Shown in pieces: positions 19,225 through 37,599 of a stretch of 55,105 nt of DNA (within the stretch, counting starts at the first letter, position 1; every line of letters starts with the position of its first letter). Both the position numbers and the translations under genes were made by a program. The stretch lies in the UHGV virus genome UHGV-0308106; one strand, given 5' to 3'. The stretch is from a virus. Under the pieces are notes generated by a model. That model saw nothing but the letters and a program-made list of their open reading frames with translations, was not told where the DNA came from and did not search any database.

Positions 19225-19845
19225 ATGAACAGACCACACCCACCAGCGCATTTTACGATGCCACCTGACCCGAAGCCTTACATCAGCATAATGCCCGCCA
19301 TTGACGTTGGCGAGTGGCTGAATCAGCACATCCTGAGCGATGAGGGTGACCTCTACAACCCTGACCACCAGCATTTGCTTGAAGCGGATCTGTGCTTTCT
19401 CTGGGCGTCGAACACTTTCGAGAAGAAAGGGCGGTCCGTGCTGGGGCAGGCGGAAGAAGTGGCAATGCGGGCTGGAGGCTGGCAGAAAGCGCGGATGGAG
19501 CAGCAGATGTATGAATGGTTCGGCAGGGTGCCGCAGTTCATCATCACGCTGGCCGCCGATTACTGCTCGCAATGTTCCGATCTGGAATTCTGCGCGCTGA
19601 TAGAGCACGAGCTTTATCACATCTGCCAAGCGACAGATGAATTTGGTGTGCCGAAGTTCACGCAGGAAGGGCAGCCAAAGCTGAAGCTGCGCGGCCATGA
19701 CGTGGAAGAGTTTGTGGGCGTGGTTCGCCGTTACGGTGCGAGCCGTGATGTGCAGGAAATGATTGATGCGGCGAATCAGCCAGCGGAGGTTGCTCATCTC
19801 GATATTGCCAGAGCTTGCGGGACGTGCATGCTGCGACTGGCTTAA
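19225..19845 (+). CDS. HExxH motif protein (putative metallopeptidase)
   Basis: 206-aa ORF; CSQCSDLEFCALIEHELYHIC contains HELYH plus flanking Cys. Confidence 0.45.
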   Translation: MNRPHPPAHFTMPPDPKPYISIMPAIDVGEWLNQHILSDEGDLYNPDHQHLLEADLCFLWASNTFEKKGRSVLGQAEEVAMRAGGWQKARMEQQMYEWFGRVPQFIITLAADYCSQCSDLEFCALIEHELYHICQATDEFGVPKFTQEGQPKLKLRGHDVEEFVGVVRRYGASRDVQEMIDAANQPAEVAHLDIARACGTCMLRLA

Positions 19846-19875: not shown

Positions 19876-20349
19876 ATGGCTGCATTAAAACCTGATGTGA
19901 AAGCCTTCATCATTCAGTCGCTTGCGTGCTATGACACGCCGACGCAGGTGGTTGAGGCTGTCCAAAAAGAATTCGGGATCAAGATCACCCGCCAGCAGGC
20001 TGAATCTCACGACCCCACGAAGGCCAGCGGTAAGACGCTCGCCAAAAAGTGGATCGAGATGTTCCACGCTACGCGCGAACGGTTCCTGACCGAAACCAGC
20101 GACATTCCGATCGCGAACAAATCCTATCGCCTCCGCGTGCTTGACCGCATGGCAACCAAAACCGAGGGGATGAAAAACTTCTCCCTGACGGCGCAGCTGA
20201 TTGAACAGGCCGCGAAAGAGGTTGGCGACGCTTACACCAATAAGCTGAAGGTTGAAAGCACTGGCAAGGATGGCGGCCCGATCAAGACCGAGACGACCAA
20301 CCTCACCGCAGATCAGGCCGCAGAGATTTACCGCAAGATGATGGGGTGA
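19876..20349 (+). CDS. putative terminase small subunit
   Basis: 157-aa ORF upstream of large terminase; paralog at 37662-38135. Confidence 0.5.
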   Translation: MAALKPDVKAFIIQSLACYDTPTQVVEAVQKEFGIKITRQQAESHDPTKASGKTLAKKWIEMFHATRERFLTETSDIPIANKSYRLRVLDRMATKTEGMKNFSLTAQLIEQAAKEVGDAYTNKLKVESTGKDGGPIKTETTNLTADQAAEIYRKMMG

Positions 20350-20374
20350 TAGCCGCATGTTGCGGCTATGGATT

Positions 20375-20587
20375 CTAGGCTTGTTTTGGTCGAGTAATAC
20401 GGCCAAGAGCTTTAATTGCAGCGACTTTGACGTTGTGATTTAGATCCGAAGATAAATCAAGTAAGCGATTTACATGAGCTGGCGTTGCTGAAGCACTCTC
20501 GCCGAGAGCATAAATTGCAGACAATTTTACTTCGTTGTTAAGGTCGTTGGTTAATTCCAACAACTTAGCGCTAACTGCTGGTGTCAT
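20375..20587 (-). CDS. HEAT-repeat-like small protein (antisense moron)
   Basis: Two repeats DLNNEVKLSAIYALGE and DLNHNVKVAAIKALGR; GGAGG SD before ATG at 20587; AT-rich; track ORF extends to 20635 via TTG. Confidence 0.45.
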   Translation of the reverse strand: MTPAVSAKLLELTNDLNNEVKLSAIYALGESASATPAHVNRLLDLSSDLNHNVKVAAIKALGRITRPKQA

Positions 20588-20658
20588 AAAACCTCCTGTA
20601 ATTGGTACATAAACAATATCAACTTTGTTACGCAAAAACTCAATGCCTGGAATTGTTT

Positions 20659-22281
20659 ATGCCTCTGCCGTTTGAATTCGATTTCAGAAACCCTGATTAC
20701 CAGATGGTTTTTGAATGGCGGATGGAGCGCTTACAGCGCATTCGCCAGAACCCTGAAATGCTGCCAGCACTAAAGCAGTTTTACCGCACCAACCCGGCAC
20801 AGTTCATCATCGACTGGGGTATGACTACTGACCCGCGTAACATCGATTATGGCCTGCCGGTCACAATCCCTTTTCTGCTGTTCCCGAAACAGGAAGAGTG
20901 GATTCACTGGATCATTGAGCGGCGCGAACGACTGGAGAACGGCATCACCGAAAAGAGCCGCGAAATGGGGCTCAGTTGGACCGCGATCGGGCTGGCCTGC
21001 TCGCTTTGTCTCTTCAACAAAGAAATGGTTATCGGTTTCGGCTCCCGTAAAGAGGAATACGTCGACAGCACCGGTGACCCGAAGGCGCTGTTCTGGAAGG
21101 CGCGAAAGTTCGTGGAAACACTGCCCATCGAGTTTCGTGGTTCGTGGGACGAGAAGAAGCATGCGCCGTATATGCGCGTTGAGTTTCCAGATACTGGCGC
21201 GGTTATCAAAGGCGAGGCTGGCGACAATATCGGACGTGGTGACCGTACCACGCTCTACCTGGTGGATGAAGCTGCATTCCTCCAGCGTCCTCTGTTGATT
21301 GATGCGGCGCTGTCGCAAACCACCCGTTGCCGTATTGACCTGAGCTCGGTTAATGGCATGGCGAACCCGTTCGCGCAGAAGCGCCACGGCGGAAAAATAC
21401 CAGTATTCACGTTCCACTGGCGAGATGACCCGCGCAAGGATGAAGAGTGGTATCGCAGGGAGTGCGAGAAAATCGACAATCCGGTGGTGGTGGCGCAGGA
21501 ACTTGACCTGAACTACAGCGCATCTGCGGAAGGCGTCCTGATCCCGTCCGACTGGGTACAGGCTGCCGTCGACGCGCATATCAAACTTGGTATTCAGCCA
21601 ACGGGCAAGCGACTGGGCGCGATGGACGTCGCCGACGAAGGCCGGGACAAAAATGCCTTTTCGACCCGTCACGGCTTCCTTCTGGAGAACGTGCGTGAAT
21701 GGTCCGGCGTTGGCAGCGACATTTACCAGTCTGTTGAGAAGGTCTTCGGCTTTTGCGAACAGGACAACCTCGAAGAGTTTCGCTTCGACGAGGACGGCCT
21801 GGGTGCTGGCGTTCGCGGCGATGCGCGCGCCATCAACGAACTGCGTTACGCAGCGCGCCGACCGTCAATACTCGCCACACCGTTTCGTGGTAGCGGCGCG
21901 GTATTTGATCCGGACGATGAAGCGGTGCGCGGGGACAACGGACAGGCCGCACGCCTGAACAAGGACTTCTTCGCCAACGCCAAGGCCCAGAGCTGGTGGT
22001 GGCTACGCAAGCTTTTCCAGAACACCTATCGCGCCGTGGTTGAGGGCATGGCCTACAACCCGGACGAAATCATCTCAATCAGCAGCGCCATGGCGAGCAA
22101 AGACAAACTCATCATTGAGCTGTCGCAGCCGACCTACTCCATTAATGGCGTGGGGAAAATCGTTGTTGATAAACAGCCTGATGGCACCAAGTCGCCGAAC
22201 CTCGCCGACTCGGTGATGATCAGCTACGCGCCAATGAATTCAGCCCTGAACATCTGGGAGCTGCTAGGGAGACAGGCCTGA
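20659..22281 (+). CDS. terminase large subunit
   Basis: About 540-aa from ATG 20659; ATPase and nuclease-type motifs ([18 protein letters not shown]); followed by portal. Confidence 0.85.
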
Positions 22282-23750
22282 TGGCACGAAACAAACAAGC
22301 CCTGCGGCGAACGGCACAGGCCACCGCTGACGGCTACGAGAACTTCGTCGCCCGCGTTGGGATGCAGACGCCTAACCAGCATTCAGCATCGACCTACCGG
22401 GCGAACTTCACCAGCCGCAACCGCATGCTGGTGGAATGGTCATATCGCGGTTCGTGGGTTATCGGTGAAGCGGTCGACGCTATCCCGGACGATATGACCC
22501 GAAAGGGCATTCGCATCACTTCGGAGATTGACGCCAAAGACCGTGGCACCCTCGAAGCGCAACTGGATGAGTTGCAGATCTGGGATGCGCTGAACGACGT
22601 GCTGAAATGGTCGCGCCTCTACGGCGGCGCGGTCGGCTTCATCATGATCGAGGGGCAAGCACCAATGACCCCGCTGCGACTCGAAACCATTGGCGAGGGC
22701 AAGTTTAAGGGCATTCTCCCGCTCGACCGCTGGATGATTAACCCGGTGCTGACACGCCGCATTAAAGAGATGGGGCCGGACCTCGGCAAGCCTGAGTTTT
22801 ACGACGTGGTGACCACCGCAACGGGCATTCCGGCCTGGCGCATCCATCACAGCCGCCTGATCCGCTTTGATGGCGTCACGCTGCCATTCCAGCAGAAGAT
22901 GACCGAAAACGAATGGGGAATGTCGGTTGTAGAGCGTATCTGGGATCGGCTTACTGCGTTCGATAGCGCTACTGTCGGCGCGGCGCAGCTGGTCTATAAA
23001 GCGCATCTGCGTACCTATAGCGTGGAGAAGTTGCGCGAGCTTATCGCGCTTGGAGGCCCGGCGTTCGAAGCGTTGCTGAAGAACATCGACCTGATCCGCC
23101 AGTTCCAGAGCAATGAAGGTATGACGCTCATGGACTCGCGGGATAAGTTCGAAACCCACCAGTACAGCTTTAGTGGTCTGGATGACATTCTTTCGCAGTT
23201 TGCTGAGCAGATCAGCGGTGCCGTTGGTATCCCGCTGGTACGCCTGTTCGGTCAATCCCCGAAAGGCTTCTCTACTGGTGATGCAGACCTCGCCAACTAT
23301 TACGACCGGGTGAGCTCATTGCAGGAGCGCCGCTTACGACTGCCGATGCGCCGGATACTGGACATTATGCACCGCTCGGAACTCGGAAAGCCGCTGCCGG
23401 ACGATTTCACGTTTGAGTTTAACCCGCTATGGCAAATGTCAGACGTTGACCGATCAACGGTGGCCGTAAACACCACCAACGCGATCAGTACCGCGCTGGG
23501 CGACGGATTGATGACGCGTAAGGCGGCGATGACCGACCTGCGCGAAAACTCTGACGTCACCGGCATCGGGGCATCCATTACCGACGAGGATATCGAGAAT
23601 GCCGAAGACGAAGCGCCGCCAGGCATCGGCGAACTTGGCGACAAACCGCCAGAGCCGCCAGGCGGAGATCCGATATCGAACGAGCCTACGGCAGATAGCG
23701 CGGGCGGTCGGGGATATCGTAAATGGGCGCTACGATGGTTCAAACGATAG
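22281..23750 (+). CDS. portal protein
   Basis: 489-aa ORF immediately after large terminase (ATGA overlap); acidic C-terminus. Confidence 0.8.
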   Translation: MARNKQALRRTAQATADGYENFVARVGMQTPNQHSASTYRANFTSRNRMLVEWSYRGSWVIGEAVDAIPDDMTRKGIRITSEIDAKDRGTLEAQLDELQIWDALNDVLKWSRLYGGAVGFIMIEGQAPMTPLRLETIGEGKFKGILPLDRWMINPVLTRRIKEMGPDLGKPEFYDVVTTATGIPAWRIHHSRLIRFDGVTLPFQQKMTENEWGMSVVERIWDRLTAFDSATVGAAQLVYKAHLRTYSVEKLRELIALGGPAFEALLKNIDLIRQFQSNEGMTLMDSRDKFETHQYSFSGLDDILSQFAEQISGAVGIPLVRLFGQSPKGFSTGDADLANYYDRVSSLQERRLRLPMRRILDIMHRSELGKPLPDDFTFEFNPLWQMSDVDRSTVAVNTTNAISTALGDGLMTRKAAMTDLRENSDVTGIGASITDEDIENAEDEAPPGIGELGDKPPEPPGGDPISNEPTADSAGGRGYRKWALRWFKR

Positions 23751-24386: not shown

Positions 24387-25619
24387 ATGAAATATTTTTT
24401 CAATACCCGGCTGGGGGAAACCCGCTATCAGCTGGCTGACGGCTCGCTGTTGTGTAAAGACGTGCCGATAGGTCGAACGGGTAAGCAGCTCTACGGCGCT
24501 GCCGATCTGCCAAACCTCAAACCCGACAAGCTCGGTGAGATAGTCGTAACGCGTTCTCCTGAGCAGGTATTCCATCCGGCCACGCTCGCCTCATTCGAAG
24601 GGATGAGCATCACGATCCTGCATCCTGAAGATGAAAACGGGAATGTGCGGCTGGTAAATCCCGAGAACTGGAAAGAGCTTGCGGTCGGGCATTTTCAGAA
24701 CGTTCGGCGCGGGACTGGTGACCAGTCTGATTTGATGCTGGCAGACCTTATCGTCAAAGACGAAAGCGCCATTCAGCTTATCGAAGATGGTCTGCGCGAA
24801 GTGTCGTGCGGCTATGACGCGGAGTACGAGCAGACCGAGCCAGGTAAAGCCGAGCAGGTCGATATTACCGGAAACCATGTGGCTCTTGTCCCTAAAGGCA
24901 GAGCCGGAAATCGTTGTGCAATTGGAGACAGAGACACAATGGCAAATCAAAAGAAAAGCTGGTGGACCCGCATGCGCACGGCCATCAAAACGGGTGACGC
25001 TGACACCATGAACGAACTGCTGGACTCTGCGCCAGCGGCGGTAACGGGTGACGAAGGGGATCTGCCGAGCGGCGTTAACCTCAACATTAACCTTTCACCG
25101 CAGCAACCATTGCCGGACAAAAAGCCGGAAATGGGCGGAGATCCAACCGGCGACGGCGAGGACGATATCAAAACCTTGCTCAAAGCCCTGCTGGCTAAGC
25201 TCGAAGGAACTGCGACGGGCGATAACGACAATAAGCCTGACGAAAAAGACAAAAAAGATCCGACCGGCGACGGCGAGGACGACGAAGAGGAAACCACGAT
25301 TACCGGTGACTCTGCCTATCGTGCCGAGGTTATCGTCCCGGGTATCGATCTGAGCCGTAAGGTGAAACCGACCGCGTTCAAACGTGATGTGCTGGCTGCC
25401 GCTGACAAAACACTGGTTCGCCAGGTTGTCGGTGATGCGGATATCCGCAAATTGCCCAAGCAATCGGTAGATATGGCGTTTAACGCCGTGTCAGAGATTG
25501 CCAAAGGGCGAAACACCCGCAGCACCACGGGCGATGCACAACGTCCAAATATGGGCATGACCAGCATCGCTTCCCTGAACAAACAAAACGCCGACTTCTG
25601 GTCTAACCGCAAAGGATAA
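24387..25619 (+). CDS. scaffold/protease-like head protein (DUF2213-like)
   Basis: 410-aa ORF; acidic repeats DPTGDGEDD x2; C-terminus TTGDA...NADFWSNRKG. Confidence 0.5.
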   Translation: MKYFFNTRLGETRYQLADGSLLCKDVPIGRTGKQLYGAADLPNLKPDKLGEIVVTRSPEQVFHPATLASFEGMSITILHPEDENGNVRLVNPENWKELAVGHFQNVRRGTGDQSDLMLADLIVKDESAIQLIEDGLREVSCGYDAEYEQTEPGKAEQVDITGNHVALVPKGRAGNRCAIGDRDTMANQKKSWWTRMRTAIKTGDADTMNELLDSAPAAVTGDEGDLPSGVNLNINLSPQQPLPDKKPEMGGDPTGDGEDDIKTLLKALLAKLEGTATGDNDNKPDEKDKKDPTGDGEDDEEETTITGDSAYRAEVIVPGIDLSRKVKPTAFKRDVLAAADKTLVRQVVGDADIRKLPKQSVDMAFNAVSEIAKGRNTRSTTGDAQRPNMGMTSIASLNKQNADFWSNRKG

Positions 25620-25833
25620 TCCAATGACTGCATATCTGTACCTTATGCAACTAATATCTATTAATCAGTGCGTTATCGTTCGGAATCATACTGCGTTACT
25701 GGCCTGAACCATAAAAATGACACTCCGAACATGTGCGGATTTATTCGCCGGATTTCGCTTTGATTCGGTACGTGAGGGACTAGAGCGAGAATCATGCGCC
25801 GTTTGCATTACATGGTAGCCAGAGAGGTGTTGA

Positions 25834-27063
25834 ATGATTGTTAGGCCACTAACTAACGTCGAAGTGAAAAGCGCGAAGGCACAGGGCAAGGATTTCAGTT
25901 TGCACGATGGTTTCGGTTTGTTGCTTTACATCACAAGCCGGGGCGGTAAGTCATGGCGTTTTCGGTATGTACACCCGGTAACGAAGAAGAGACAAACCTA
26001 TACCATTGGAAGATACCCGGAGTTTACTTTGTCCGAAGCGAGGGAGGAACGTTCGAAACTGCGCCGTATGGTAGCGCGGGGGATAGATCCGAACGAAGTC
26101 AAAAAAGATACCAGGAATGAACAGCGTAAAATGTACGCGCAGTCATTTCAGGCCGTTGCCGATGAATGGCTAAAAATCAAGATTAAAGAAGGTGCGAGAA
26201 GCAACACGCTTGAATCGCACAATGTGACGTTGAAGCATCTTTCCACGATTTTTAGGCATACCACAGTACATAAAATAAACGCAGCCGATACTATTCAGGC
26301 TTTTAAACCTTTCAGGGAAAGGCCATCAACGCTTACGAAAATGGTTATTACCATCAACGCCATAATGGATTATGCGGTAAATATTGGGGTTATTGAGCAC
26401 AACCCACTATCGAAAATTGGTAAAGCATTCCCGGCTGAAAAAAACGAACCAAGAGCGACTTTACAGAAAGAGCGGTTGCCAGAATTTTTAAGCGCATGGA
26501 ACGAGTTGAGCTTATGGGAGCCATCAAAGCTGGCATTATTATTTCAGATCATTACGATGGTCCGACCTTCGGAAGCTGGCGGCGCTCTCTGGAATGAGAT
26601 TGATTTTGATAATTCAATCTGGCAAATCCCTGCAAGCCGGATGAAAGGAAAGCGCCCCCACGTAGTCCCATTATCGAGCCAGGCTATAAACGTGCTTAAA
26701 GAGGCCGAAAAGTGGAAGCGCTGCGATTATGTTTTCCCCTCATGGCGAAAAGAAAATAAGCCGATCTCACGATGTGCGACTCAGGCCGGAATACACAAAA
26801 CGTCGTTTAAAGGAATGATTGTTCCTCATGGGTTCAGGGCGTTGGCATCTACAGTTTTAAATGACGAGGGGTTCAACCCTGATGTGATTGAGGCTGCACT
26901 CGCTCACAAAAGCGCCGATGCGATTCGAAATGTTTATAACCGTAGCGACTATCTGGAAAAACGCCGGGTTTTAATGCAATGGTGGGGGGACTTTATCGAG
27001 GCCGCAGAGCGTGGAGAGATACTGGAGACCAGCGGCGATAAGGGCTTAAGGCTGGTTGTGTAG
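25834..27063 (+). CDS. int: tyrosine integrase (P4-type) of nested element
   Basis: 409-aa ORF; N-terminal arm-binding-like GKSWRFRYV; catalytic domain (HGFRALAST, AALAHKSADAIRNVYNR). Confidence 0.85.
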   Translation: MIVRPLTNVEVKSAKAQGKDFSLHDGFGLLLYITSRGGKSWRFRYVHPVTKKRQTYTIGRYPEFTLSEAREERSKLRRMVARGIDPNEVKKDTRNEQRKMYAQSFQAVADEWLKIKIKEGARSNTLESHNVTLKHLSTIFRHTTVHKINAADTIQAFKPFRERPSTLTKMVITINAIMDYAVNIGVIEHNPLSKIGKAFPAEKNEPRATLQKERLPEFLSAWNELSLWEPSKLALLFQIITMVRPSEAGGALWNEIDFDNSIWQIPASRMKGKRPHVVPLSSQAINVLKEAEKWKRCDYVFPSWRKENKPISRCATQAGIHKTSFKGMIVPHGFRALASTVLNDEGFNPDVIEAALAHKSADAIRNVYNRSDYLEKRRVLMQWWGDFIEAAERGEILETSGDKGLRLVV

Positions 27064-27104
27064 GGCATATCCATTTTTGGATAATTATGATTTCAAACGG
27101 GAAT

Positions 27105-27129
27105 AGCTGGCTTTAAGCCAGCTTTTTTT
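27105..27129 (+). terminator. intrinsic terminator after integrase
   Basis: agctggc-tttaa-gccagct hairpin followed by tttttt. Confidence 0.55.
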
Positions 27130-27206
27130 ATGCCCAAAGCTAACCGGAATGCGTTTTTTTTTATTCAAATCATATATAATCATATCGAATATATACGGAG
27201 GTTTTT

Positions 27207-27419
27207 ATGTCTATAAGTGGCGGTGATATTCTGCTAAAAGGTGAAGTGAAAGCGCGTTTACGTTATCGCTCAGACTCGTCATTCTACGAGTTTCTAAAAG
27301 ACGAGAAAAACGGCTTTCCAATGCCTTTTAAAGTCGGTGGGCGTAACTGCTGGTATGAAGATGAAGTAGATGCCTGGATAAGTAAACAAAGCGAGAAGCG
27401 CGGGATCTGCACATCATGA
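27207..27419 (+). CDS. AlpA-family transcriptional regulator
   Basis: 70-aa ORF; GGAGG SD; short HTH protein (FPMPFKVGGRNCWYEDEVDAWI) adjacent to integrase. Confidence 0.65.
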   Translation: MSISGGDILLKGEVKARLRYRSDSSFYEFLKDEKNGFPMPFKVGGRNCWYEDEVDAWISKQSEKRGICTS

Positions 27420-27558
27420 ATGTTTGCAGATTTGGGAAAGAGGGCTTGCTAACGGCTATCCGGGCAAGCCCTTTTTATTGTCAGTGGTGGGGATCTGTAA
27501 CTTACGGCCACCAGCGCCGGTAATCACCTTCTGGCTGGTGGCTTCACTGGCATGGCTA

Positions 27559-27918
27559 TTACGCTGCCGCATCATCTGAATTGAATTCAATGTGAATTCG
27601 GTCATAAGGCAGCACGATTTTTTCGCCGTCTTTGTCCAGAACGCCGCCGTTAAGCAGTGACTGAACATCGTTATAAACACCGCGAAAATCACGGTTAACA
27701 ATGCGTGATAGTTCGCGGATTGATACGGCTTGCGCTCCCTCCATCGCTTTGATGATCTGCCAGCGGTTAGGGGCAAGCATAGTTTTAGCCAGTTGTTCTA
27801 CAGTGGGAAAAATCAGTTCGGAACCGATGAAATCCCCGTTCATTGCGCGGGAGGCGTCGGACATTGCCACCCGGAAAGCATCATCAACGGTCATTACTCT
27901 GACGGTCAGCACTCGCAT
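27559..27918 (-). CDS. winged-HTH protein (antitoxin/regulator-like)
   Basis: 119-aa ORF, GGAGG SD, 4-bp gap after upstream 93-aa gene; HTH-like AVSIRELSRIVNRDFRGVYNDV. Confidence 0.5.
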   Translation of the reverse strand: MRVLTVRVMTVDDAFRVAMSDASRAMNGDFIGSELIFPTVEQLAKTMLAPNRWQIIKAMEGAQAVSIRELSRIVNRDFRGVYNDVQSLLNGGVLDKDGEKIVLPYDRIHIEFNSDDAAA

Positions 27919-27922
27919 GGTA

Positions 27923-28204
27923 TTACCTCCTCAACAGGTTTATGTCAGCCTGAAAGCTGGCGATCAGGTTCTCAATGGTGGTGAATGTCACCGGATATTC
28001 CCGATCATGGATGTGTTTGTGGTCGCCTTTGCCACGTTCGTTGTCGTAACGCATGACGCACTCGCCATCTACGATGTAGGCCAGACTGTACTTGTATTGG
28101 TGCTGGCTACCTAAAATTGCCGGGTCTACTTCCAGAATGCGGATCGAGGCGAAAGCGTTATCAGCTATCTGGATACGGCGGTTCATCAACTCAACAGCGG
28201 GCAT
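27923..28204 (-). CDS. small protein (toxin-like partner, family not recognised)
   Basis: 93-aa ORF, AAGGAG SD, operator palindromes immediately upstream. Confidence 0.45.
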   Translation of the reverse strand: MPAVELMNRRIQIADNAFASIRILEVDPAILGSQHQYKYSLAYIVDGECVMRYDNERGKGDHKHIHDREYPVTFTTIENLIASFQADINLLRR

Positions 28205-28220
28205 TGGCTTATCTCCTTGT

Positions 28221-28270
28221 TGATGTAAATAATAACATCACAAACGAATGATGTAAATGATTACATCATT
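28221..28270. promoter_or_regulatory. inverted-repeat operators upstream of two-gene cassette
   Basis: tgatgt-aaataata-acatca (28221-28240) and aatgatgtaa-atga-ttacatcatt (28247-28270). Confidence 0.45.
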
Positions 28271-28412
28271 GCGGGTAAGTTACCGATGGCATGAACGGTT
28301 CGCTGCTGGTGGCTCTCGATCTCCTGAAAGCTCAGGATATTGCCGGGCATGATTTTAATCGGCGGACTTTTCGGCCGATTGAATACGGGCAGTTCGCTCC
28401 CTGTGTATCGGC

Positions 28413-28552
28413 TTCGTTTCTGGATGATTCGCGTTTCGTTTCTGGTGAATTCGCATTCGCAATTTGTCCGCGAAGCCTTATCAGGCCTGATTTGAGCGGT
28501 GCTCTCTCTTTGCGAATTCGCAGTTCCATTTCGCACTTTGATTCGCAGTTTT
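28413..28552. repeat. cluster of palindromic GAATTCGC/GATTCGC motifs
   Basis: Tandem 20-mers ttcgtttctggatgattcgc (28413-28432) and ttcgtttctggtgaattcgc (28435-28454); further gcgaattcgca and gattcgca copies to 28552; overlapping ORFs look non-coding. Confidence 0.4.
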
Positions 28553-28713
28553 CAAATGTTCCCATTCCGGGGACACGGACGATTAGACAGGTGTTACAAA
28601 CGTTGGTGGTGAAATATCTTCTTGCGCTGGCGGGCACGGTGTGGTTATGATTATTTCGCACCTCACAAAACGGGTGCCGGGCGTGAGAACCCGGATAAGG
28701 TCAAAGGCGACAA

Positions 28714-28737
28714 CAGACGCCTATCGCGTCTTTTTTT
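28714..28737 (+). terminator. intrinsic terminator in leader upstream of icd-like gene
   Basis: agacgc-ctatc-gcgtct stem followed by tttttttt. Confidence 0.4.
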
Positions 28738-28931
28738 TGTCGCAATGTCAGTACCCCCATATGTAGCGGCGCAGATCCGCGCACAGAATCAATGGTGGCT
28801 CTGGCAGGGCAGCTTTCGGGCTGGCCGGTTCCCTTTGACGCCGGTATTCTCACCCCTGTCAGTGTCACCACCCTTTAGAGCGTGAGAACTCAGGTGGTGG
28901 CTCCTTAAATTAGTCAAAGGAGATCATCATC

Positions 28932-29129
28932 ATGATGACTATCCCTACCCTCGCTCAAACAAAATTCACCTGGCGCTTTCTCGCGCTGAATCGCCACGAT
29001 AAAAAAGCCAAACCTTGCCGTCTGTCCGTTGAGGCTGCGACCGAACGCGAAGCCCGCCGCATCCTTGCGCCGCACTTTATTTTGTCTCTGGCCGCACGTC
29101 TGCCAGTGCCGGAGGTGCGTCATGTTTAA
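28932..29129 (+). CDS. Icd-like small protein (P4 family)
   Basis: 65-aa; KFTWRFLALNRHD...RLSVEAATEREARRILAPHFILSLAARLP resembles Icd/Ash proteins as recalled. Confidence 0.45.
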   Translation: MMTIPTLAQTKFTWRFLALNRHDKKAKPCRLSVEAATEREARRILAPHFILSLAARLPVPEVRHV

Positions 29130-30000
29130 CCTCCAGACACTGACAGCTAAAGCCCGTGAGCTGCGCGGCAACGTCGTTAAAGCGGCGAGCACAAAGGGAA
29201 GTCGCACCATGACTCCTGTCTATGACCGTGACGAGCAGCGCAAGCTACGCGAGCGCATCCAGCAGACACAGCCCGATTGGGTGTTGCTCTGGTGGGATAT
29301 TGCGACCGTAACCGGCTGGCGTACCAGCGACGTTTGCAACCTGCGCTATTCCTGCGTCAATTGGGAAACGGGGCAGGCGACAATTATCGTTGCCAAGCAG
29401 ACCAAAGCCGCCGAAGCGCGGGCAACCCGCAAAGGTATTGAAATTGTGCGCCAGCAGCGCAAGGACGCCGCGCGGCTCGCCGCTGACCATATCGCCTACA
29501 TGAAGTGGGATAGTATCGGTTGTGACGAACTGGCCGCCGATATGAACGACGAGGAACAGGCGATTGTGTTCGGGCTGGTGGCAAAGGCTGACGTCAAGCA
29601 CGACACCAAACAGTTACCGCCCGGCATTATCAAGCGGCTGCGTGACCGTCAGGATCGGAATCTGGTGGAGGACGACCTGGTATTTTCACGCTCTCAAATC
29701 GAAAGTAACCGTTGTCAACGTCTGGAAGGTAGCGTTACTCGCCAAACCATCTGGCGCAAACTTCATGGCGTCATGGCGTGGTTTACCCGTTTCATTAACG
29801 CTAAATTGCGCCTGAGCGCGTACTCAAGCCGAAAAATAGCAGCCTTTAATCTTATGTCCGCAGGTGGCGAACAGGGATTATTGGTGGCTTCTGAAATGCT
29901 GGGGCATAGCAACCCGGCGATAACTCGCACTTACCTTCAATTAGGCAGCAAAGCCGCCGCTATCCAGTCCCGTTTAGCAATGGAGGTGTGCCATGCGTAA
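29122..30000 (+). CDS. tyrosine recombinase-like protein (catalytic domain only)
   Basis: 292-aa from ATG 29122 (GGAGG SD); WDIATVTGWRTSDVCNL and C-terminal LGHSNPAITRTYLQ; no N-terminal core-binding domain. Confidence 0.55.
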   Translation: MFNLQTLTAKARELRGNVVKAASTKGSRTMTPVYDRDEQRKLRERIQQTQPDWVLLWWDIATVTGWRTSDVCNLRYSCVNWETGQATIIVAKQTKAAEARATRKGIEIVRQQRKDAARLAADHIAYMKWDSIGCDELAADMNDEEQAIVFGLVAKADVKHDTKQLPPGIIKRLRDRQDRNLVEDDLVFSRSQIESNRCQRLEGSVTRQTIWRKLHGVMAWFTRFINAKLRLSAYSSRKIAAFNLMSAGGEQGLLVASEMLGHSNPAITRTYLQLGSKAAAIQSRLAMEVCHA

Positions 30001-30172
30001 TCTCTTTCATATCACTGGCTACGCCGTCAATAAACGCGGCCTGACAGTCGGTTTTAGCTATCTCATCGACGCCGAGGACGCCATGCAGGCAAAAGTTAAT
30101 GCCATTGCTGAGGCGAAAGACGATGAACTCACCCACGTATCTATTGCCCGTATTCTGGAGGTGGCAGCATGA
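29993..30172 (+). CDS. hypothetical small protein
   Basis: 59-aa ORF not in track; GGAGG SD; coupled to neighbours. Confidence 0.35.
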   Translation: MRNLFHITGYAVNKRGLTVGFSYLIDAEDAMQAKVNAIAEAKDDELTHVSIARILEVAA

Positions 30173-30381
30173 GCAAAGTATCCCTGGCCGATTCAACCTG
30201 CCGTATCCAACAGGCGCAGGAAGTCCTGTCTCTCTGGCTTGAGGCGACGAATAAAAACGATAGCGGCACGGCTAAATTAATCGGCGCAATCATTTCCCTT
30301 CTGGATGGTATCCCCGAATTGATGGATTCAGTAGAGGATGAATTGGCTGGCATGGACTTAAAAGCGATGGATAAAGCATGA
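30169..30381 (+). CDS. hypothetical protein
   Basis: 70-aa ORF, ATGA coupling on both sides. Confidence 0.4.
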   Translation: MSKVSLADSTCRIQQAQEVLSLWLEATNKNDSGTAKLIGAIISLLDGIPELMDSVEDELAGMDLKAMDKA

Positions 30382-31004
30382 GCAACGTAGAGAAATTCAC
30401 ACCGGGAAATGCCGACTTATTACACGCCGAAGCCACACCGCACGGCGTAAACATCATGACCCGCAATGATGCCGGGATGTATGAGCATGTAGCCATTATC
30501 ACCTATGAGAGCGCTGTAAGCCGTCTGGATGCGGGAGAGTACGACGATACGCCAGATATCGGCTACGCCATTCATTTTGCCGTTGCTGATGGCGGGGCGC
30601 GTGGCTGGTTCGACTTTACCGCGCAGCATGAAGTAACCATGTGGCGCTGGCTGATTGCTGCGACGTTCGTTTCTGAGATGAAGCGCGAAAACGGCACAAC
30701 CTCCGTCACGGAGGCTGACGGCACAACATCGCAGGTGGCGATTTACTCCAATGGTAATGCGGGCATGGTGATTTACCCGTTTGCTGAACGGCTGGCGATG
30801 GCGAACAACATCGAGGGCGCAATGATTGAGCGATACGGCGTCGAACAGGGTACGGAAAAAGCCATTGTGTTTTATCAGGCCATGCTGGATACGGAGCGCG
30901 GCGAGCTTACCCCGTTCGGACGTGAAACGCTGGCAGAGCTACACGATCACTTCATTGCTGATCTGGATGAAAACGGCTGGCCTGAAATGCCAGCGGCGCA
31001 CTGA
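30378..31004 (+). CDS. hypothetical protein
   Basis: 208-aa ORF upstream of primase in same operon. Confidence 0.45.
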   Translation: MSNVEKFTPGNADLLHAEATPHGVNIMTRNDAGMYEHVAIITYESAVSRLDAGEYDDTPDIGYAIHFAVADGGARGWFDFTAQHEVTMWRWLIAATFVSEMKRENGTTSVTEADGTTSQVAIYSNGNAGMVIYPFAERLAMANNIEGAMIERYGVEQGTEKAIVFYQAMLDTERGELTPFGRETLAELHDHFIADLDENGWPEMPAAH

Positions 31005-31016
31005 GGGAGCGACACA

Positions 31017-33797
31017 ATGCGTAATATCGACCTTATCCGCGAAGTGACCAGCGCCGCAGCAGGGCGCTGGCCTTATGTGCTGGCTGGGTTGTCTATCGAC
31101 GTGCCTGATTCATCGCGCCGCCATTCTCCATGCCCTGCATGTGGTGGAAAAGACCGTTTCAGATTCGACGACAACGGGCGCGGTAGCTTTATCTGCAACC
31201 AGTGTGGCGCTGGTGACGGGCTGGATTTAATCAAGCGGGTTAACAACTGCGACACTACGGAGGCGGCACAGCTTGCCGCTGACGTGCTGGGTATTGATTA
31301 CCGGGCAGCGCAATCCGACCCGGTGGCAGCGAGCCATATAAGGGAGCAACTGGAAGCTGACCGCCAGCAGCGTGAGCAGGAGCGCCAGAAACAGGCAGCA
31401 GGGGACGCAGAGCAGCGAAGGGCTACGTTTGCCCGTCTGTATGCCGGAATGCGCCAGAGTGCCACACAGGGCGAATCTGATTACCTGCAATCAAAAGGGC
31501 TGACCGGGTTTAACTATCCGGTTATGCCTGATGGTTCGTTATTGCTGGAGCTGGTGGACGAATCCGGCGCAGTGGCAGCAGCGCAAACCATTACACCGCA
31601 GGGAGAGAAGCGACTCCTGACAGGTTCAGCAAAGCGCGGGGCATATCACGCCGTAAACGCGCCAGAATCGCCGCAGAGCGTTTTAATTGCCGAGGGGCTG
31701 GCGACGGCCCTTTCAGTTCACCTGATGCGCCCGGACGCGCTGGCAGTGGCAGCAATTGACGCGGGCAACCTGCTACCCGTTGCCGAAGTGATGCGCCGGA
31801 AGTACCCACAGGCACAAATCATCATTGCCGCAGATAACGACCAGATGGGCGAAAGTGACGGAATTAAAGGAGTGAAAGTTAACACTGGCAAGGAGGCCGC
31901 AGAGAAAGCCGCGAAAGCCGTTTCTGGCTGGGTTTCCATGCCACCAGTGGACTATAAAGCGGACTGGAACGACTACCACCAGCAATACGGCCTCGAAGCG
32001 GCCACAGCAGCATTTAACGACTCAATGTATCAACCGGAGGGTAAGAAAGTGGGTGCGACACTGACAGCTATCGACGGCGGCAAGAAAAAACTTGGTATCG
32101 ACGACGATCTGAAACCGCGAGTAGAGAGCCGTGCGGATGGCATTCACTGGATCACCCCGAAAGTGGACAAAGACACAGGAGAAATTATCAATACCGAGGC
32201 GTGGCTATGCTCTCCGCTGGAGATTGCTGGTGCGGGGAGTGATAACGCCAGACAGCGCTTTCTGATCCTGCGTTGGGACGTCCCCGGCAACCGGGGGCAA
32301 GTTACCCGTGCGCTTCCATGGGAGGACATTGGCGACCGTGAGGGATGGCGCACGCTGAAAAACGGCGGTGTCAGTGTGACAACCAAACCATCGTTGCGGG
32401 CAATTCTGGCCGACTGGCTGCAGCGAACTGGTAGCGGCAAGGAATGGCAGATCAGCCACACCACAGGCTGGCACAACGGGGCGTACATCATGCCGGATGG
32501 TGATGTTATTGGTGAGCCAGAGATACCGCTGTTATTCAGTGGTCGGAGTGCGGCGGCTGGTGGCTATACCGTCAGTGGAACGCCGGAAAGCTGGCGTGAT
32601 TCGGTGGCGCGTCTTGCGCTGGGAAACCCGTCAATGATGCTGGGCGTTGCTGCTGCGCTTTCTGCGCCGCTGATCGGGCTTGTTGGCGCTGACGGGTTCG
32701 GCGTGCATCTTTTCGAGCAGTCCAGCGCAGGGAAGACAACCACCGCCAACATTGCCAGCAGTTTATACGGTGAACCGGATGCCTTGCGCCTTACCTGGTA
32801 CGGTACAGCGCTGGGTATCGCCAACGAAGCGGAAGCGCATAACGACAGCCTGTTACCGCTGGATGAAGTGGGGCAGGGCAGTAGCGCCAAAGACGTTGCT
32901 ACGTCTGCTTACACGCTGTTTAACGGTGCCGGAAAGCTACAGGGGGCCAAGGAGGGCGGCAACCGTGAGTTAAAGCGCTGGCGCACCGTGGCGATCAGTA
33001 CCGGGGAAATGGACATTGAGACGTTTCTTTCTGCTGGTGGGCTGAAAGTTAAGGCCGGGCAACTGGTGCGATTGCTTAATTTACCGATGGAGAAATCAGT
33101 AACGCACCATGAGTACCAGAACGGGAAGCAACACGCCGACGCACTCAAAGAGGCTTACCAGACGAACCACGGAGCCGCAGGCCGTGAATGGATTAAATGG
33201 CTTGCAGGCCACCAGCAGGAGGCAAAACAAGCTGTCAGGGCGGCGCAAGAGCGCTGGCGCAGTCTTATCCCCGCTGATTATGGCGAACAGGTTCATCGTG
33301 TCGGTGAGCGGTTCGCCATTCTGGAGGCGGCGCTGGTGCTGGGGATGCCTGTCACTGGTTGGGGGGAGCAGGAAAGTCGGGACGCTATCCAGCATGGCTT
33401 TAATGCTTGGGTAAAAGAGTTTGGCACGGGGAACCGTGAGCATAAGCAGATCATCGAGCAGGCAGAGGCGTTTCTTAATGCCTACGGCATGAGCCGTTTC
33501 GCGCCGTTCCCGTATAGCCCGGCTGACATGCCGATCCGGGATTTAGCCGGATACCGTCAGAAAGGTGAGCATGACGAAAGCCCCGTAGTGTTCTACACCT
33601 TTCCGGCTGCGTTCGAAAAGGAGATAGCGCAGGGCTTTAATGCGAAACAGTTTGCCCGTGTGCTGGCCGGGGCTGGGGTACTGAAACCGCCAGCCAGCGG
33701 AAGGGGATATCAGCGTAAATCCCCGCGAATTGATGGACGCCAGATAAACGTTTATGTGCTCCAGCTACGACCCGACGAGATAGAGGGCGAAGAATAA
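31017..33797 (+). CDS. primase-helicase (P4 alpha-like)
   Basis: 926-aa; zinc ribbon CPACGG...CNQCG; TOPRIM-like AEGLATALSVH and IIAADNDQ; P-loop-like SSAGKTT. Confidence 0.9.
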   Translation: MRNIDLIREVTSAAAGRWPYVLAGLSIDVPDSSRRHSPCPACGGKDRFRFDDNGRGSFICNQCGAGDGLDLIKRVNNCDTTEAAQLAADVLGIDYRAAQSDPVAASHIREQLEADRQQREQERQKQAAGDAEQRRATFARLYAGMRQSATQGESDYLQSKGLTGFNYPVMPDGSLLLELVDESGAVAAAQTITPQGEKRLLTGSAKRGAYHAVNAPESPQSVLIAEGLATALSVHLMRPDALAVAAIDAGNLLPVAEVMRRKYPQAQIIIAADNDQMGESDGIKGVKVNTGKEAAEKAAKAVSGWVSMPPVDYKADWNDYHQQYGLEAATAAFNDSMYQPEGKKVGATLTAIDGGKKKLGIDDDLKPRVESRADGIHWITPKVDKDTGEIINTEAWLCSPLEIAGAGSDNARQRFLILRWDVPGNRGQVTRALPWEDIGDREGWRTLKNGGVSVTTKPSLRAILADWLQRTGSGKEWQISHTTGWHNGAYIMPDGDVIGEPEIPLLFSGRSAAAGGYTVSGTPESWRDSVARLALGNPSMMLGVAAALSAPLIGLVGADGFGVHLFEQSSAGKTTTANIASSLYGEPDALRLTWYGTALGIANEAEAHNDSLLPLDEVGQGSSAKDVATSAYTLFNGAGKLQGAKEGGNRELKRWRTVAISTGEMDIETFLSAGGLKVKAGQLVRLLNLPMEKSVTHHEYQNGKQHADALKEAYQTNHGAAGREWIKWLAGHQQEAKQAVRAAQERWRSLIPADYGEQVHRVGERFAILEAALVLGMPVTGWGEQESRDAIQHGFNAWVKEFGTGNREHKQIIEQAEAFLNAYGMSRFAPFPYSPADMPIRDLAGYRQKGEHDESPVVFYTFPAAFEKEIAQGFNAKQFARVLAGAGVLKPPASGRGYQRKSPRIDGRQINVYVLQLRPDEIEGEE

Positions 33798-33811
33798 AAC
33801 ACACATACGAG

Positions 33812-34104
33812 ATGTTTTTTTGTTGGTTCAGTTGGTTCAGTAACTATTTAATTAAGATAAGTATATGTATTTAATATATTTCTATACCCATAAGTGAACC
33901 AACACTGAACCAACAAATACCCATTTTGAACCAACAAATGCCGCTATTGAACCAACGCCCTTTTCTGGCTGGCCTGTAAATCTTTCCCACTGAACCAACA
34001 CGAAAATAGCGTTTGTTGGTTCAAAACAAGGCTTTGTTGGTTCACTCCTCAAGAAATAATCCTTACAAAACAACAATCTTTACAAATTGAACCAACTGAA
34101 CCAA
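33812..34104. repeat. iteron array / candidate origin of replication
   Basis: 12 copies of GAACCAAC in both orientations (e.g. 33812, 33821, 33886, 33897, 33918, 33939, 33982, 34005, 34026, 34079, 34088, 34097) flanking an AT-rich tract 33830-33880. Confidence 0.65.
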
Positions 34105-34397
34105 CTGAACCAACATGTTTTTGTTTATCTATAGAGTTTTTTCGGAGAGTAATTACGAATTTGGAGGGGCATCGCCTAAGCGACAGTATGCGGAAACGGC
34201 AACTTTGCGGAGCGGAAAAGAAAAAGCCCGCGCTGGAGAGGCGAGGGCTTTTGTTAACCATGTTTATGCAATCACACAATGGTGGATCACCGTCATAGTA
34301 CCACGTCGATTTATCATTTCAATGTACGCAATGATGTTTACTAATATTGCAATTTATGCAATGATCAGAATTTAAACAACGCAAAAGGTTATGAACA

Positions 34398-34961
34398 ATG
34401 AAACAGATAACCAATGTTAATCTGGAAAGTGATAACGCTGGTGGTACAGTCGAGGTGACTTACTCCGATGATACGTTCGAAAGGCTGACCTGTTCGCTGC
34501 CTGTGGCTCTCGTCATTGCGAACCTTGCAACGACGCTTAAGCAGGAACGTGCAACACGCATTGCAACCGGCGACCGCCTGCGCCGGATGTATACCCGCGA
34601 TAGTGACATGATTACCCGCAGCGGCAGCGGCGCTTCTACGACCTCCACCGCGCCAACGTCAATGGACGCTGAATTTATGCGCCTGGTACGCGCTGTAGCA
34701 CCAAAGTATGACAACGCCCTTCCTGATACCGATCCTCGCCTTGTTGCGCTTGATGTGCTGCGTTACGCACCCGCTGAGGCATTCAGTGCGGTACACCCGA
34801 CCCCGCTATCAGAGATTCAGCTTGATCAGGCTATCGACGTTCTGGAACAGGTTGGCGACTACATGCGAGTTAACAACGTTTCACCGAAGATTCTCACCAC
34901 AGGCGACGCCATTCGCAGCATTAACACCGACAACGCCAGTTTCTGGCATCGCACGAAGTAA
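34398..34961 (+). CDS. hypothetical protein with scaffold-like C-terminal motif
   Basis: 187-aa; C-terminus TTGDAIRSINTDNASFWHRTK resembles helper 24387-25619 C-terminus. Confidence 0.5.
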   Translation: MKQITNVNLESDNAGGTVEVTYSDDTFERLTCSLPVALVIANLATTLKQERATRIATGDRLRRMYTRDSDMITRSGSGASTTSTAPTSMDAEFMRLVRAVAPKYDNALPDTDPRLVALDVLRYAPAEAFSAVHPTPLSEIQLDQAIDVLEQVGDYMRVNNVSPKILTTGDAIRSINTDNASFWHRTK

Positions 34962-34967
34962 GGAGCA

Positions 34968-35162
34968 ATGAGCATGGCTATTTATGACCCGAAATTAGCA
35001 GCAGGAAACCCGCAAAGCGCCGGGCGTAAACTCTTTGGCCGTGAACAGGCCGAGCAATTGCGGATGCGTAACAACTTCAACAACGAATGCCGCAATCTGG
35101 AAAAAGTCAACGAAGCGAATGCAAAGTTCTGGAGTGAACAGGATGAAAAAGCCAAACGTTAA
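34968..35162 (+). CDS. hypothetical small protein
   Basis: 64-aa; contains NAKFW near C-terminus. Confidence 0.4.
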   Translation: MSMAIYDPKLAAGNPQSAGRKLFGREQAEQLRMRNNFNNECRNLEKVNEANAKFWSEQDEKAKR

Positions 35163-35310
35163 GCCGGTATTACTCTCTGGCGACCAGTTCGCCGCAATCT
35201 GCAAGATCCAGGAGCGCGAACGCCAGCGCTCCGATATTGGCGTAGCGCCGTCTGTCCATCAAATTGCCCGTGGGCTGGTGGCGAAAGCGCTGGCATCAAT
35301 TCAGGAATAA
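35143..35310 (+). CDS. hypothetical small protein
   Basis: 55-aa from ATG 35143 with GGAG SD. Confidence 0.3.
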   Translation: MKKPNVKPVLLSGDQFAAICKIQERERQRSDIGVAPSVHQIARGLVAKALASIQE

Positions 35311-35315
35311 CGACT

Positions 35316-36383
35316 ATGTCATATAACTGGATGCGCCATTTCGAGCTACAGCTCATCGATGAGAATGGCAAAGGAATTAGCCTTAGTGATTTCAAAGTTA
35401 CCTTTGATATAGAGCGTAACGATAACAAATGGCCAGCTGTTGCGACGGTCAAGATCTACAACCTTTCACCAACTACTCAGAACCGTATTATGCAACGTGA
35501 GTTTGCCAAAATTGTGTTGATAGCGGGGTATGATGGTCGTGCGCAGGATGTAAGGGCAAGTGATGTGGGGATTGCACGTGAAATATCAGCAAGCGAAGTG
35601 GGCCAGGCTAACGGCGCAAACTACGGAGTCATTTTCAGCGGTGATATCCGCTTCACTGTGACCGGAAAAGATAACCCTGTCGATTCATGGGTACAGGTGC
35701 AGGCTTGTGACTCTGTGGAGGCGTTTACCAGCGCATTTATCAACACCACTATCAGCAAAGGCTACACCACAGAAGATATTTATGTTGAGCTTATGAAAAG
35801 GCTGGAACCTTACGGCATTTCTCGCGGTATTGTTCCTGAATTCCCGGCAACGGTATTTCCTCGCGGTCGAGCCCTCTTTGGCTATGTCCATAACTATCTC
35901 GATGAAGTGGCCGCGCAGTGCAAAGCCACTTGGCAATTCAACTATGGAAAAGTCGATATTGTTCCCAGAGACAAGGCCACTCATGAAGCTGTGGTTCTCA
36001 ACGCTAATACCGGGCTTATCGGTATGCCTCAGCAGACCATCGGTGCGGGTGTGAATGTCAAATGCCTGATTAACTCACGGATTCACCTGAACGGGCTTAT
36101 CCAACTGGATCAGGCTTCGGTATATCGTAGCGCCTTATCTGCGGATCAAATTGCCCAAGCTGGTGGGCCAATTTCGGTGGAAAGCCAAAACGGAAACCTT
36201 GTCACTACTGGATTAACGCAGAGTCCGGCGAGCATTGCTACCGATGGTATCTATAAGGTTCGGTATATCAGTTACACGGGCGACACGCGCGGTCAAGCGT
36301 GGTATATGGATCTGGCGTGTGAGGCTCGCGGGAATTCTGATTTATTTTCAAGTTCATTTATGAATAAGCAGAGTGAAGAATGA
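35316..36383 (+). CDS. baseplate hub-like protein (paralog of 47472-48536)
   Basis: 355-aa; about 70 percent identical by eye to helper hub-like protein (MSYNWMRHFELQLID vs MSLNWMRHFELQLLD). Confidence 0.5.
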   Translation: MSYNWMRHFELQLIDENGKGISLSDFKVTFDIERNDNKWPAVATVKIYNLSPTTQNRIMQREFAKIVLIAGYDGRAQDVRASDVGIAREISASEVGQANGANYGVIFSGDIRFTVTGKDNPVDSWVQVQACDSVEAFTSAFINTTISKGYTTEDIYVELMKRLEPYGISRGIVPEFPATVFPRGRALFGYVHNYLDEVAAQCKATWQFNYGKVDIVPRDKATHEAVVLNANTGLIGMPQQTIGAGVNVKCLINSRIHLNGLIQLDQASVYRSALSADQIAQAGGPISVESQNGNLVTTGLTQSPASIATDGIYKVRYISYTGDTRGQAWYMDLACEARGNSDLFSSSFMNKQSEE

Positions 36384-36724
36384 AGAAGATTATTTTACTG
36401 ATTGGTTTATTGGGCGCATCTGGAAGTCATGCTGCGCAGGTTATTACCATGCAGTGCGGAAACTTTCGCTTTGAGATGATAGAAAACTCGATGGCGAGAA
36501 TTAATGGTGAGTATGTAACATCTCAGAAAATTACAGAGTTCGGACAGAACGGGGCAAAAGTAGAAATGACGCTTATGCCTGCCAGCGATGGGAATCTGTA
36601 TGGGTTTGAATACATCCATCCTGACGGTAGCAAAAAGCGCTGGCTGAATGTTGAGCTTATCCGCACCAATATGAATCAGGCGCGGATCATTGGCTCGTTT
36701 GATTGTAAGCGCGTGAAGGGGTAA
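36380..36724 (+). CDS. secreted small protein (paralog of 48549-48893)
   Basis: 114-aa; signal peptide MKKIILLIGLLGASGSHA; two Cys; shared C-terminal DCRKVK. Confidence 0.5.
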   Translation: MKKIILLIGLLGASGSHAAQVITMQCGNFRFEMIENSMARINGEYVTSQKITEFGQNGAKVEMTLMPASDGNLYGFEYIHPDGSKKRWLNVELIRTNMNQARIIGSFDCKRVKG

Positions 36725-36732
36725 GGGGAATC

Positions 36733-37571: not shown

Positions 37572-37599
37572 CGGTCAGATGACGTGATCTGTAACTTTA

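Follow-up and report, generated by a model that had tools for sequence, protein, structure and literature searches.

A proposed moron cassette encoding a small two-HEAT-repeat protein between the terminase genes of a lambdoid prophage

The closest described counterparts of the locus reported here are phage morons in the HK97 and HK022 sense, a usage said to be that of Juhala, Hendrix and colleagues. In lambda, the bor gene is an antisense moron lying between the lysis and terminase genes. Small proteins that bind the small terminase subunit (TerS) of a helper phage are known from satellites, as in Ppi of the Staphylococcus aureus pathogenicity islands (SaPI) and Rpp of the phage-inducible chromosomal islands (PICI). 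HEAT repeats, for their part, occur in the Imm-HEAT proteins of polymorphic toxin systems, which provide immunity to Tox-REase-7 and Ntox34 toxins (Zhang et al. 2012, PMC3482391). Here we analyse the UHGV virus genome UHGV-0308106, a stretch of 55,105 nucleotides (hereafter the window) of which the region studied belongs to a lambdoid prophage whose late genes are of the myovirus type, and in particular a minus-strand gene for a two-HEAT-repeat protein that separates the genes for the small (terS) and large (terL) terminase subunits.

We consider it probable that this feature is, taken as a whole, a moron: an autonomous accessory cassette that has entered a lambdoid E. coli prophage with a myovirus-type tail, at the junction where terS and terL normally abut, and that produces a stoichiometric binder that is expressed in the lysogen or early and acts in conflict. 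The anatomy of the cassette is the part of this reading that we hold with high confidence; our confidence in the predicted function is much lower.

The insertion between terS and terL

The gap between terS and terL in the window measures 309 nt and contains the minus-strand open reading frame (ORF). In relatives without the cassette the terS stop codon abuts the terL start codon, reading TGATCATG, whereas the window reads TGAT, then 307 bp, then ATG, which makes the insertion junction precise. Alignment and a repeat search found no target-site duplication and no flanking direct repeats at the cassette. The large subunit (TerL) encoded in the window is intact and 99.8% identical to that of an insert-free relative. 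A sequence-only reading of this DNA had described an AT-rich antisense gene filling the gap between the terminase genes; this description stands, with the addition that the gap owes its existence to an exact insertion of 307 bp, which most relatives lack.

The rarity of the insertion is apparent from a survey of 5426 complete E. coli genomes, 387 of which match a 3.1-kb terS-terL query, 25 of them with a match covering at least 80%. Among the matches listed for those 25 genomes, most align as two pieces with 90% coverage and therefore lack the insert. Carriers of the cassette amount to 5 of the 5426 genomes, namely two of the 25 and three prophages with a different terS. The insert is absent from Citrobacter phage Omnitron, a deposited phage record of 98% identity, which argues that the cassette is dispensable for the phage.

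The insert also differs in composition from its surroundings. Its GC fraction is 0.414, compared with 0.553 for terS and 0.567 for terL, which places it in the lowest 4.5% of 307-nt windows and bears out the AT-richness first noticed. The same tendency was observed in 14 of the 14 other alleles checked, where the GC content of the HEAT gene lies 4-14 points under that of its own locus. Clean presence or absence between otherwise adjacent genes and deviant composition, two of the marks by which morons are recognised, are both found at this locus.

The HEAT-repeat gene, its product and its family

The ORF list gives the gene as 20375-20635 (86 amino acids from a TTG start), and an internal ATG gives a protein of 70 amino acids. 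The Prokaryotic Genome Annotation Pipeline (PGAP) calls the longer form in AR_0118 and LR-33 and the shorter form in Z1322HEC0009, and the RefSeq name "HEAT repeat domain-containing protein" is already attached to the product. The TTG start was rejected, as in other alleles a stop codon lying a few triplets ahead of the ATG closes the extension (20588-20635 in the window). On these grounds, and because all homologues have 63-72 amino acids, we take the 70-residue ATG form to be correct; the longer form would also overlap the candidate -10 element.

The product scores above the curated thresholds of two Pfam families, HEAT_2 (PF13646; 34.2 bits, E=3.3e-8, gathering score 27.7) and HEAT (PF02985; 29.9 bits, gathering score 23.5), and under those of HEAT_EZ and HEAT_PBS. 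An AlphaFold model, computed from an alignment of only six sequences, has a mean predicted local distance difference test (pLDDT) score of 90.9 and places helices at residues 3-12, 18-29, 36-45 and 51-65, that is, two helix-turn-helix repeats. Together with Foldseek this model describes tandem antiparallel helix pairs stacked as a solenoid. The Foldseek matches are designed alphaRep HEAT-like binders, with template-modelling (TM) scores of 0.78-0.84, root-mean-square deviations of 1.4-2.1 Å and 24-32% identity, and armadillo designs with TM scores of about 0.8. A profile of the family run against the PDB retrieved alphaRep sequences down to E=4e-16; its matches at E<=0.01 comprised only designed alphaRep and armadillo proteins, one natural HEAT-repeat chain of 196 amino acids and one eukaryotic protein. 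The structure searches returned only designed repeat proteins of a generic kind, and none of their matches was a viral protein with a known role. The two HEAT-like repeats and the GGAGG Shine-Dalgarno motif that had been read from the leftward ORF are both borne out, the motif being an AGGAGG at 20597-20592 on the minus strand.

Comparison of alleles by the Nei-Gojobori method suggests that the protein is maintained by selection. The window gene and the Z1322 allele (locus L002) differ by six synonymous changes and one non-synonymous change, giving a ratio of non-synonymous to synonymous rates (dN/dS) of 0.05, and two Enterobacter alleles differ by four synonymous changes against one non-synonymous. 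For the more distant Enterobacter alleles L006 and L005 the counts are 24 and 14, with a dN/dS of 0.145, and between allele classes the synonymous sites are saturated while the proteins are 41-62% identical. Every allele recovered is an intact ORF of constant length. One of them, L024, retains an intact HEAT gene with candidate promoter and hairpin despite a deletion that fused terL to portal. These patterns indicate that, as judged from sequence comparison, the ORF truly encodes a protein and is maintained by purifying selection. That it might be a fragment of a longer HEAT gene was considered and rejected, as start, stop and length are all conserved across the family.

The L024 locus (4915-6207) belongs to a decayed prophage in which the deletion joined terL to the portal C-terminus as a 337-residue chimera, and chromosomal barnase and barstar genes lie nearby.

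Relatives of the protein came from word-indexed and exhaustive searches, complemented by scans of contig collections of genomic, viral and metagenomic origin. Most of the matches of the exhaustive profile search were multi-repeat HEAT proteins of 500-4000 amino acids, retrieved through summation of scores, and the informative matches were a handful of representatives of 68-72 amino acids. The family so defined consists of two-repeat proteins of 63-72 amino acids with 36-100% identity, encoded in Escherichia, Enterobacter and related prophages. The first repeat carries the signature A-I-[YHQ]-A-L-G-E, the second carries A-L-G-R-[IML]-x-R, and the C-terminal tail is usually basic; beyond the generic HEAT consensus, E30, R41, R63 and R66 are invariant and Y26 is nearly so. 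In 50,697 deposited phage genomes tblastn detected no match to the protein; the members recovered all come from prophages or from contigs of uncultivated viruses.

In about 25 prophage contexts the HEAT gene lies antisense to the late operon, beside the start of terS or terL. Homologues at the position seen in the window, which the sequence-only reading had proposed to seek in related phages, are present in related prophages and are under purifying selection, contrary to the refuting outcome named there, in which no relative would conserve the ORF. In this first position the gene separates terS from terL, and its start codon is about 70 nt away from that of terL (the window, L019/L030, L023, L024, L031, L049, L051, L052 and L053); the window value is 71 nt between the two divergent start codons. 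TerL in this group is 60-100% identical to that of the window, and TerS is of three architectures (DUF2280, short Terminase_2 and long Terminase_2). In the second position, that of a sister subgroup, the gene is directly upstream of a Terminase_2-type terS, with start codons usually 19-35 nt apart (L005, L006, L025, L026, L033, L058 and L063). To this subgroup also belong L057 and L059, where terS 5' sequence is visible upstream, and L069 and L064, which have larger gaps; its TerL proteins are of the Terminase_3, Terminase_6/6C or window type. At L004, the HEAT gene has moved together with a 5' remnant of terS into the late region of another phage.

The alleles are not tied to particular neighbours. 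The same HEAT allele (98.6-100% identity) is found behind two different TerS architectures, and in L002 and L019 HEAT alleles of only 62% identity are flanked by terS and terL genes that are nearly the same (95-99%). This argues for the behaviour of a cassette and not for co-adaptation with a particular terminase.

Two further observations concern individual loci. L026 has a second small ORF of 54-71 amino acids in its terS-terL gap (5259-5474, on the plus strand of the locus and antisense to the late genes), which belongs to no family and suggests that the terS-terL junction serves as a slot for small antisense genes in general. At L019 (6001-6204) the two HEAT repeats, TRLLELTRDLNNDIRIAAIYALGEG and NRLLELTRDSNNDIRIAATKALGRI, are nearly identical to each other, which suggests recent internal duplication or gene conversion between them.

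Expression signals and proposed function

Alignment of the 78 nt before the start codon in four diverged alleles of the same slot (the window, L019, L023 and L024) leaves only TTGA, ATATT, AGGAG and the ATG as invariant blocks. When nine same-slot alleles are compared, TTGnnn with a 17-nt spacer of unrelated sequence is present in 9/9, 27-29 nt before the ATG; the -10 hexamer is nATATT in eight and CAAATT in the ninth, with diverged sequence around it, and a GGAGG or GGAG motif before the start is visible in all nine. The combination TTGA-N20-ATATT occurs a single time in the 55-kb window, at this site. The conservation points to a sigma-70-type promoter belonging to the cassette itself.

At the other end, a hairpin begins 5 nt past the HEAT stop codon on the gene strand and shares its outermost base with the last base of the terS stop codon. 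An 8-bp stem at 20350-20368 had been noted here from the start; it is present and extends to 9 bp. The 45 nt after the stop codon, which comprise the hairpin and a weak second stem, fold on the gene strand with -16.0 kcal/mol (z = -4.5 against shuffled sequences). Hairpins of -13 to -16 kcal/mol lie 3' of the stop codon in 9/9 loci folded, with stems that differ in sequence (ATAGCCGCA/TGCGGCTAT in the window, ATGCCGCTC/GAGCGGCAT in L019 and CAGGCGC/GCGCCTG in Enterobacter alleles). Because the structure is kept while the sequence changes, the hairpin is likely to have a function, and it may be a weak terminator or a stabiliser of the 3' end. A generic terminator scan gave only a site at chance level. 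In some alleles the structure is terminator-like on the strand of the late operon, as in L019, whose stem has a TTTTT run behind it; a terminator of this kind should be passed by Q-modified polymerase.

We propose that these elements form one transcription unit on the minus strand, in the order of a sigma-70-type promoter (TTGAGT, 17 nt, GATATT), a strong ribosome site, a gene of 70 codons and a GC-rich hairpin with a probable role in ending or stabilising the transcript. Transcription would start from the promoter of the cassette, independent of and opposing the Q-antiterminated late operon, and with an antisense promoter of its own the gene would be active chiefly in the lysogen or soon after induction. 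No catalytic motif is present in the protein, which is a minimal form of a scaffold known, in natural and designed proteins alike, for binding other proteins. Given this lack of catalytic features and the minimal architecture of a repeat binder, it would probably act stoichiometrically by binding another protein, most likely in some phage-phage or phage-host conflict and to the benefit of the lysogen.

Several observations weigh against this proposal. The candidate promoter matches the consensus at 8/12 positions, which explains why a generic promoter scan called no site; the promoter is consequently proposed on the basis of comparative footprinting. For the sister subgroup, whose gene lies upstream of terS, the coding constraint on terS prevented a comparable promoter from being told apart. 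In the window no U-tract adjoins the hairpin on the gene strand, and the structure is therefore not a canonical intrinsic terminator. Searches of PHROGs, PADLOC and NCBIfam gave no meaningful family for the protein and no defence or anti-defence family. The function suggested here is drawn wholly from the predicted fold, and a generic model of benefit to the lysogen does not account for the constant adjacency to terminase genes. The only match in PADLOC-DB is a local one of 18 bits to the repeat region of a HEAT-ARM model of 1972 positions, the homologues gave none, and the protein is not placed among defence families.

The adjacency is what a packaging-linked role would explain. The protein could bind TerS or TerL of its own phage or of a competing phage or satellite, in the manner of Ppi and Rpp, or mask terminase from host sensors such as Avs, and this is the strongest of the rival explanations, although we judge it unlikely. 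Its appeal is that in about 25 contexts the gene lies 19-71 nt, or a few hundred nt, from the start of terS or terL, a placement that spans members of 36-100% identity, three TerS architectures and several TerL families (the window type, Terminase_3 and Terminase_6/6C). The move of the gene at L004 took a terS 5' fragment along, the invariant E30, R41, R63 and R66 and the nearly invariant Y26 suggest one conserved partner, and the window also holds a putative satellite with a DUF2280 TerS of its own. Against such a role, the antisense orientation uncouples the gene from late expression at the time of terminase synthesis, and the same terS and terL alleles accompany HEAT alleles of 62% identity, with no co-variation with the supposed partner. 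The linkage may instead reflect descent together with the flanks, and since small antisense ORFs of other kinds also occur at the lysis-terS and terS-terL junctions (L026), these junctions may be no more than permissive slots. Moreover, carriers such as LR-33 lack a satellite at the site seen in the window, while the satellite-bearing ET791 has no HEAT gene in the stretch examined. In a stronger form, the proteins of 63-72 residues would be a dedicated packaging-conflict family that binds a terminase subunit, or a rival, satellite or host protein that senses or hijacks terminase, with selection keeping the linkage to the terS start. If true, this would explain the antisense, terminase-side position of every member across several terminase families; we hold this stronger form to be somewhat less likely again.

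Other rivals leave the terminase aside or dispense with a working protein. An orphan immunity protein of the Imm-HEAT kind, neutralising an incoming Rhs, contact-dependent inhibition (CDI) or type VI secretion system (T6SS) toxin and so protecting the lysogen, would suit a solitary accessory gene of lysogen type and foreign composition, and has a precedent in the HEAT-repeat immunity proteins documented against Tox-REase-7 and Ntox34 (PMC3482391). We find it improbable, as no toxin gene is adjacent in the contexts examined, where the neighbours are terminase, lysis, KilA-N and portal genes; the family profile matched no PDB chain labelled as an immunity protein, and two repeats make a protein much smaller than the known Imm-HEAT proteins. 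Regulation at the level of RNA or DNA, in which convergent transcription or an antisense RNA dampens or processes the late terS-terL message and the peptide is secondary, is still less probable. Transcription of the cassette would yield an RNA with full complementarity to the terS-terL interval of the late mRNA. The insertion, which replaces the TGATCATG junction and places a new region upstream of terL, would break the translational coupling of the two genes, and the start codon of terL could be sequestered in the late mRNA by a perfect inverted repeat of 10 nt. This repeat, however, is imperfect in Z1322 and not conserved in other alleles, and may be due to chance. An Rfam search gave only chance matches below threshold, the whole mRNA is not unusually structured (z = -1.3), and it is the amino acids that are under strong purifying selection, with length and fold kept across alleles saturated at synonymous sites. 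A spurious or decaying ORF, left without function by an old recombination, would fit the rarity of the cassette (5/5426 genomes), its lack of a named function and its dispensability in insert-free relatives including Omnitron. The conservation data contradict this and lead us to exclude it with next to no reservation: dN/dS is 0.05-0.15, the ORF is intact and of constant length in all alleles, the promoter hexamers, ribosome site and hairpin are conserved, and the HEAT_2 score exceeds its curated threshold.

Taken together, the evidence leads us to favour a moron that encodes a small binder. The gene is conserved but rare, and on this reading it would be an ordinary kind of phage moron and not a new kind of system. 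Full-text literature searches found no paper on this gene or family. If the proposal is true, the cassette is a clean and compact moron with all of its parts readable, and it defines a small, uncharacterised family of minimal two-repeat HEAT proteins of Enterobacteriaceae prophages with constant placement beside terminase genes. This placement offers a concrete and cheap hypothesis, namely contact with the packaging machinery or with its hijackers or sensors, and a natural two-repeat binder of alphaRep type may be of interest to protein engineers. As the gene is generically annotated already, rare and without demonstrated phenotype, the finding is useful and unsurprising, and its interest would rise if the link to terminase were functional.

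Neighbouring genes and comparison with known systems

The coordinates of the cassette, of its parts and of the surrounding genes are collected in Table 1.

Table 1. Features of the cassette, its flanks and the block in the head operon, in window coordinates.
Feature	Coordinates	Strand	Basis or remark
Inserted cassette (proposed moron), 307 bp	20351-20657		Alignment with the insert-free E. coli PEC422 prophage and two insert-bearing prophages
Two-HEAT-repeat protein, coding sequence, 70 amino acids	20375-20587	-	ATG at 20587; stop TAG 20377-20375 included
Shine-Dalgarno AGGAGG	20592-20597	-	4 nt upstream of ATG
Candidate -10 GATATT	20615-20620	-	Conserved across diverged alleles
Candidate -35 TTGAGT	20638-20643	-	17 nt upstream of -10
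Hairpin, 9-bp stem	20349-20369		Inverted repeat; ATAGCCGCA 20349-20357, loop TGT, TGCGGCTAT 20361-20369
Perfect 10-nt inverted repeat CATAAACAAT / ATTGTTTATG	20608-20617 / 20652-20661		Second arm covers terL start codon
Putative metallopeptidase	19225-19845	+	
terS, putative small terminase subunit (DUF2280)	19876-20349	+	Pfam DUF2280 E=9e-50; directly 5' of terL position
terL, large terminase subunit, 540 amino acids	20659-22281	+	PHROG 2, E=3.4e-31; PGAP name 'TerL protein'
Portal protein	22281-23750	+	
P4-type integrase	25834-27063		
Second integrase fragment	29029-30000		
Toprim/DUF927 primase-helicase	31017-33797		
Spike-like (tail-spike-like) gene	36733-37395		
Second DUF2280 TerS-like gene	37662-38135		64% identical to prophage TerS

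The flanks of the gap had been named from the start as the small and large terminase genes, and this assignment agrees with the PHROG 2 match for TerL and with the likeness of a C-terminal tail for TerS. The upstream DUF2280 gene lies directly before terL and has a tail in common with recognised TerS proteins: its C-terminal 39 residues are 64% identical to those of a Terminase_2-family TerS of the same slot. In this comparison (window 20230-20346, the terS C-terminus, with L002 2886-3002) the N-terminal parts are unrelated, and both proteins pair with the same TerL. The sequences indicate domain shuffling of TerS around a common tail, which we take, from general knowledge, to bind TerL and thus presumably to be the docking element. 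A prophage 99.8% identical to that of the window is integrated between kch and yciI in E. coli LR-33.

Homology with the prophage of LR-33 ends at 25648 and is found again from 38351, leaving a block of 12.7 kb (25649-38350). On one side of the block lies a DUF2213 gene (24387-25619) and on the other lie the cement and capsid genes (38367-39802); in LR-33 these two sides adjoin. A related block lies between the same two genes in E. coli ET791, in a prophage with a different terminase, and includes integrase, AlpA, Icd-like, DUF927 and DUF2280 genes. No att-like direct repeat of at least 10 nt was found at the ends of the block in the window, and the block looks like a P4-like satellite that inserts inside the head operon of a helper prophage.

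When the cassette is set beside the systems introduced above, it shares with Ppi and Rpp a small protein encoded next to packaging genes and a genomic association with terS; it differs from them in that the gene belongs to the phage and not to the satellite, and runs antisense to the packaging genes. With the Imm-HEAT proteins it has in common the use of HEAT-repeat proteins as stoichiometric inhibitors in bacterial conflict, a feature of that group. Unlike them, it has no linked toxin, shows no specific sequence relationship that we could find, is much shorter and resides in the late operon of a prophage, and it was not counted among them.

At the level of the protein, the nearest likeness is to HEAT repeats of the PBS-lyase type (HEAT_2/HEAT_PBS) and to the alphaReps, with which it shares the repeat signature ..D.n..VR.aAi.ALG.ig and the predicted stacking of helix-turn-helix units. 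The alphaReps are pure protein-binding modules, designed and derived from PBS-type HEAT repeats. Whereas natural HEAT proteins and alphaReps have many repeats and caps, the cassette protein would consist of two 33-residue repeats with no caps and a short basic C-terminal tail.

The organization of the cassette is closest to that of the phage morons. It departs from the known ones in its product, predicted to be a cytoplasmic protein of two HEAT repeats and not a lipoprotein or another known conversion factor, in its slot, a terS-terL junction that is normally tight or coupled, and in a hairpin without U-tract. In common with them, the cassette gene is additional to the core set, occurring in some phages and missing from close relatives, and has a clean junction between late genes, a promoter-like element, a downstream hairpin and a lower GC content; it opposes the late operon, an orientation suited to expression from the prophage. 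The sister subgroup of the family sits exactly in the position between lysis genes and terS that bor occupies in lambda.

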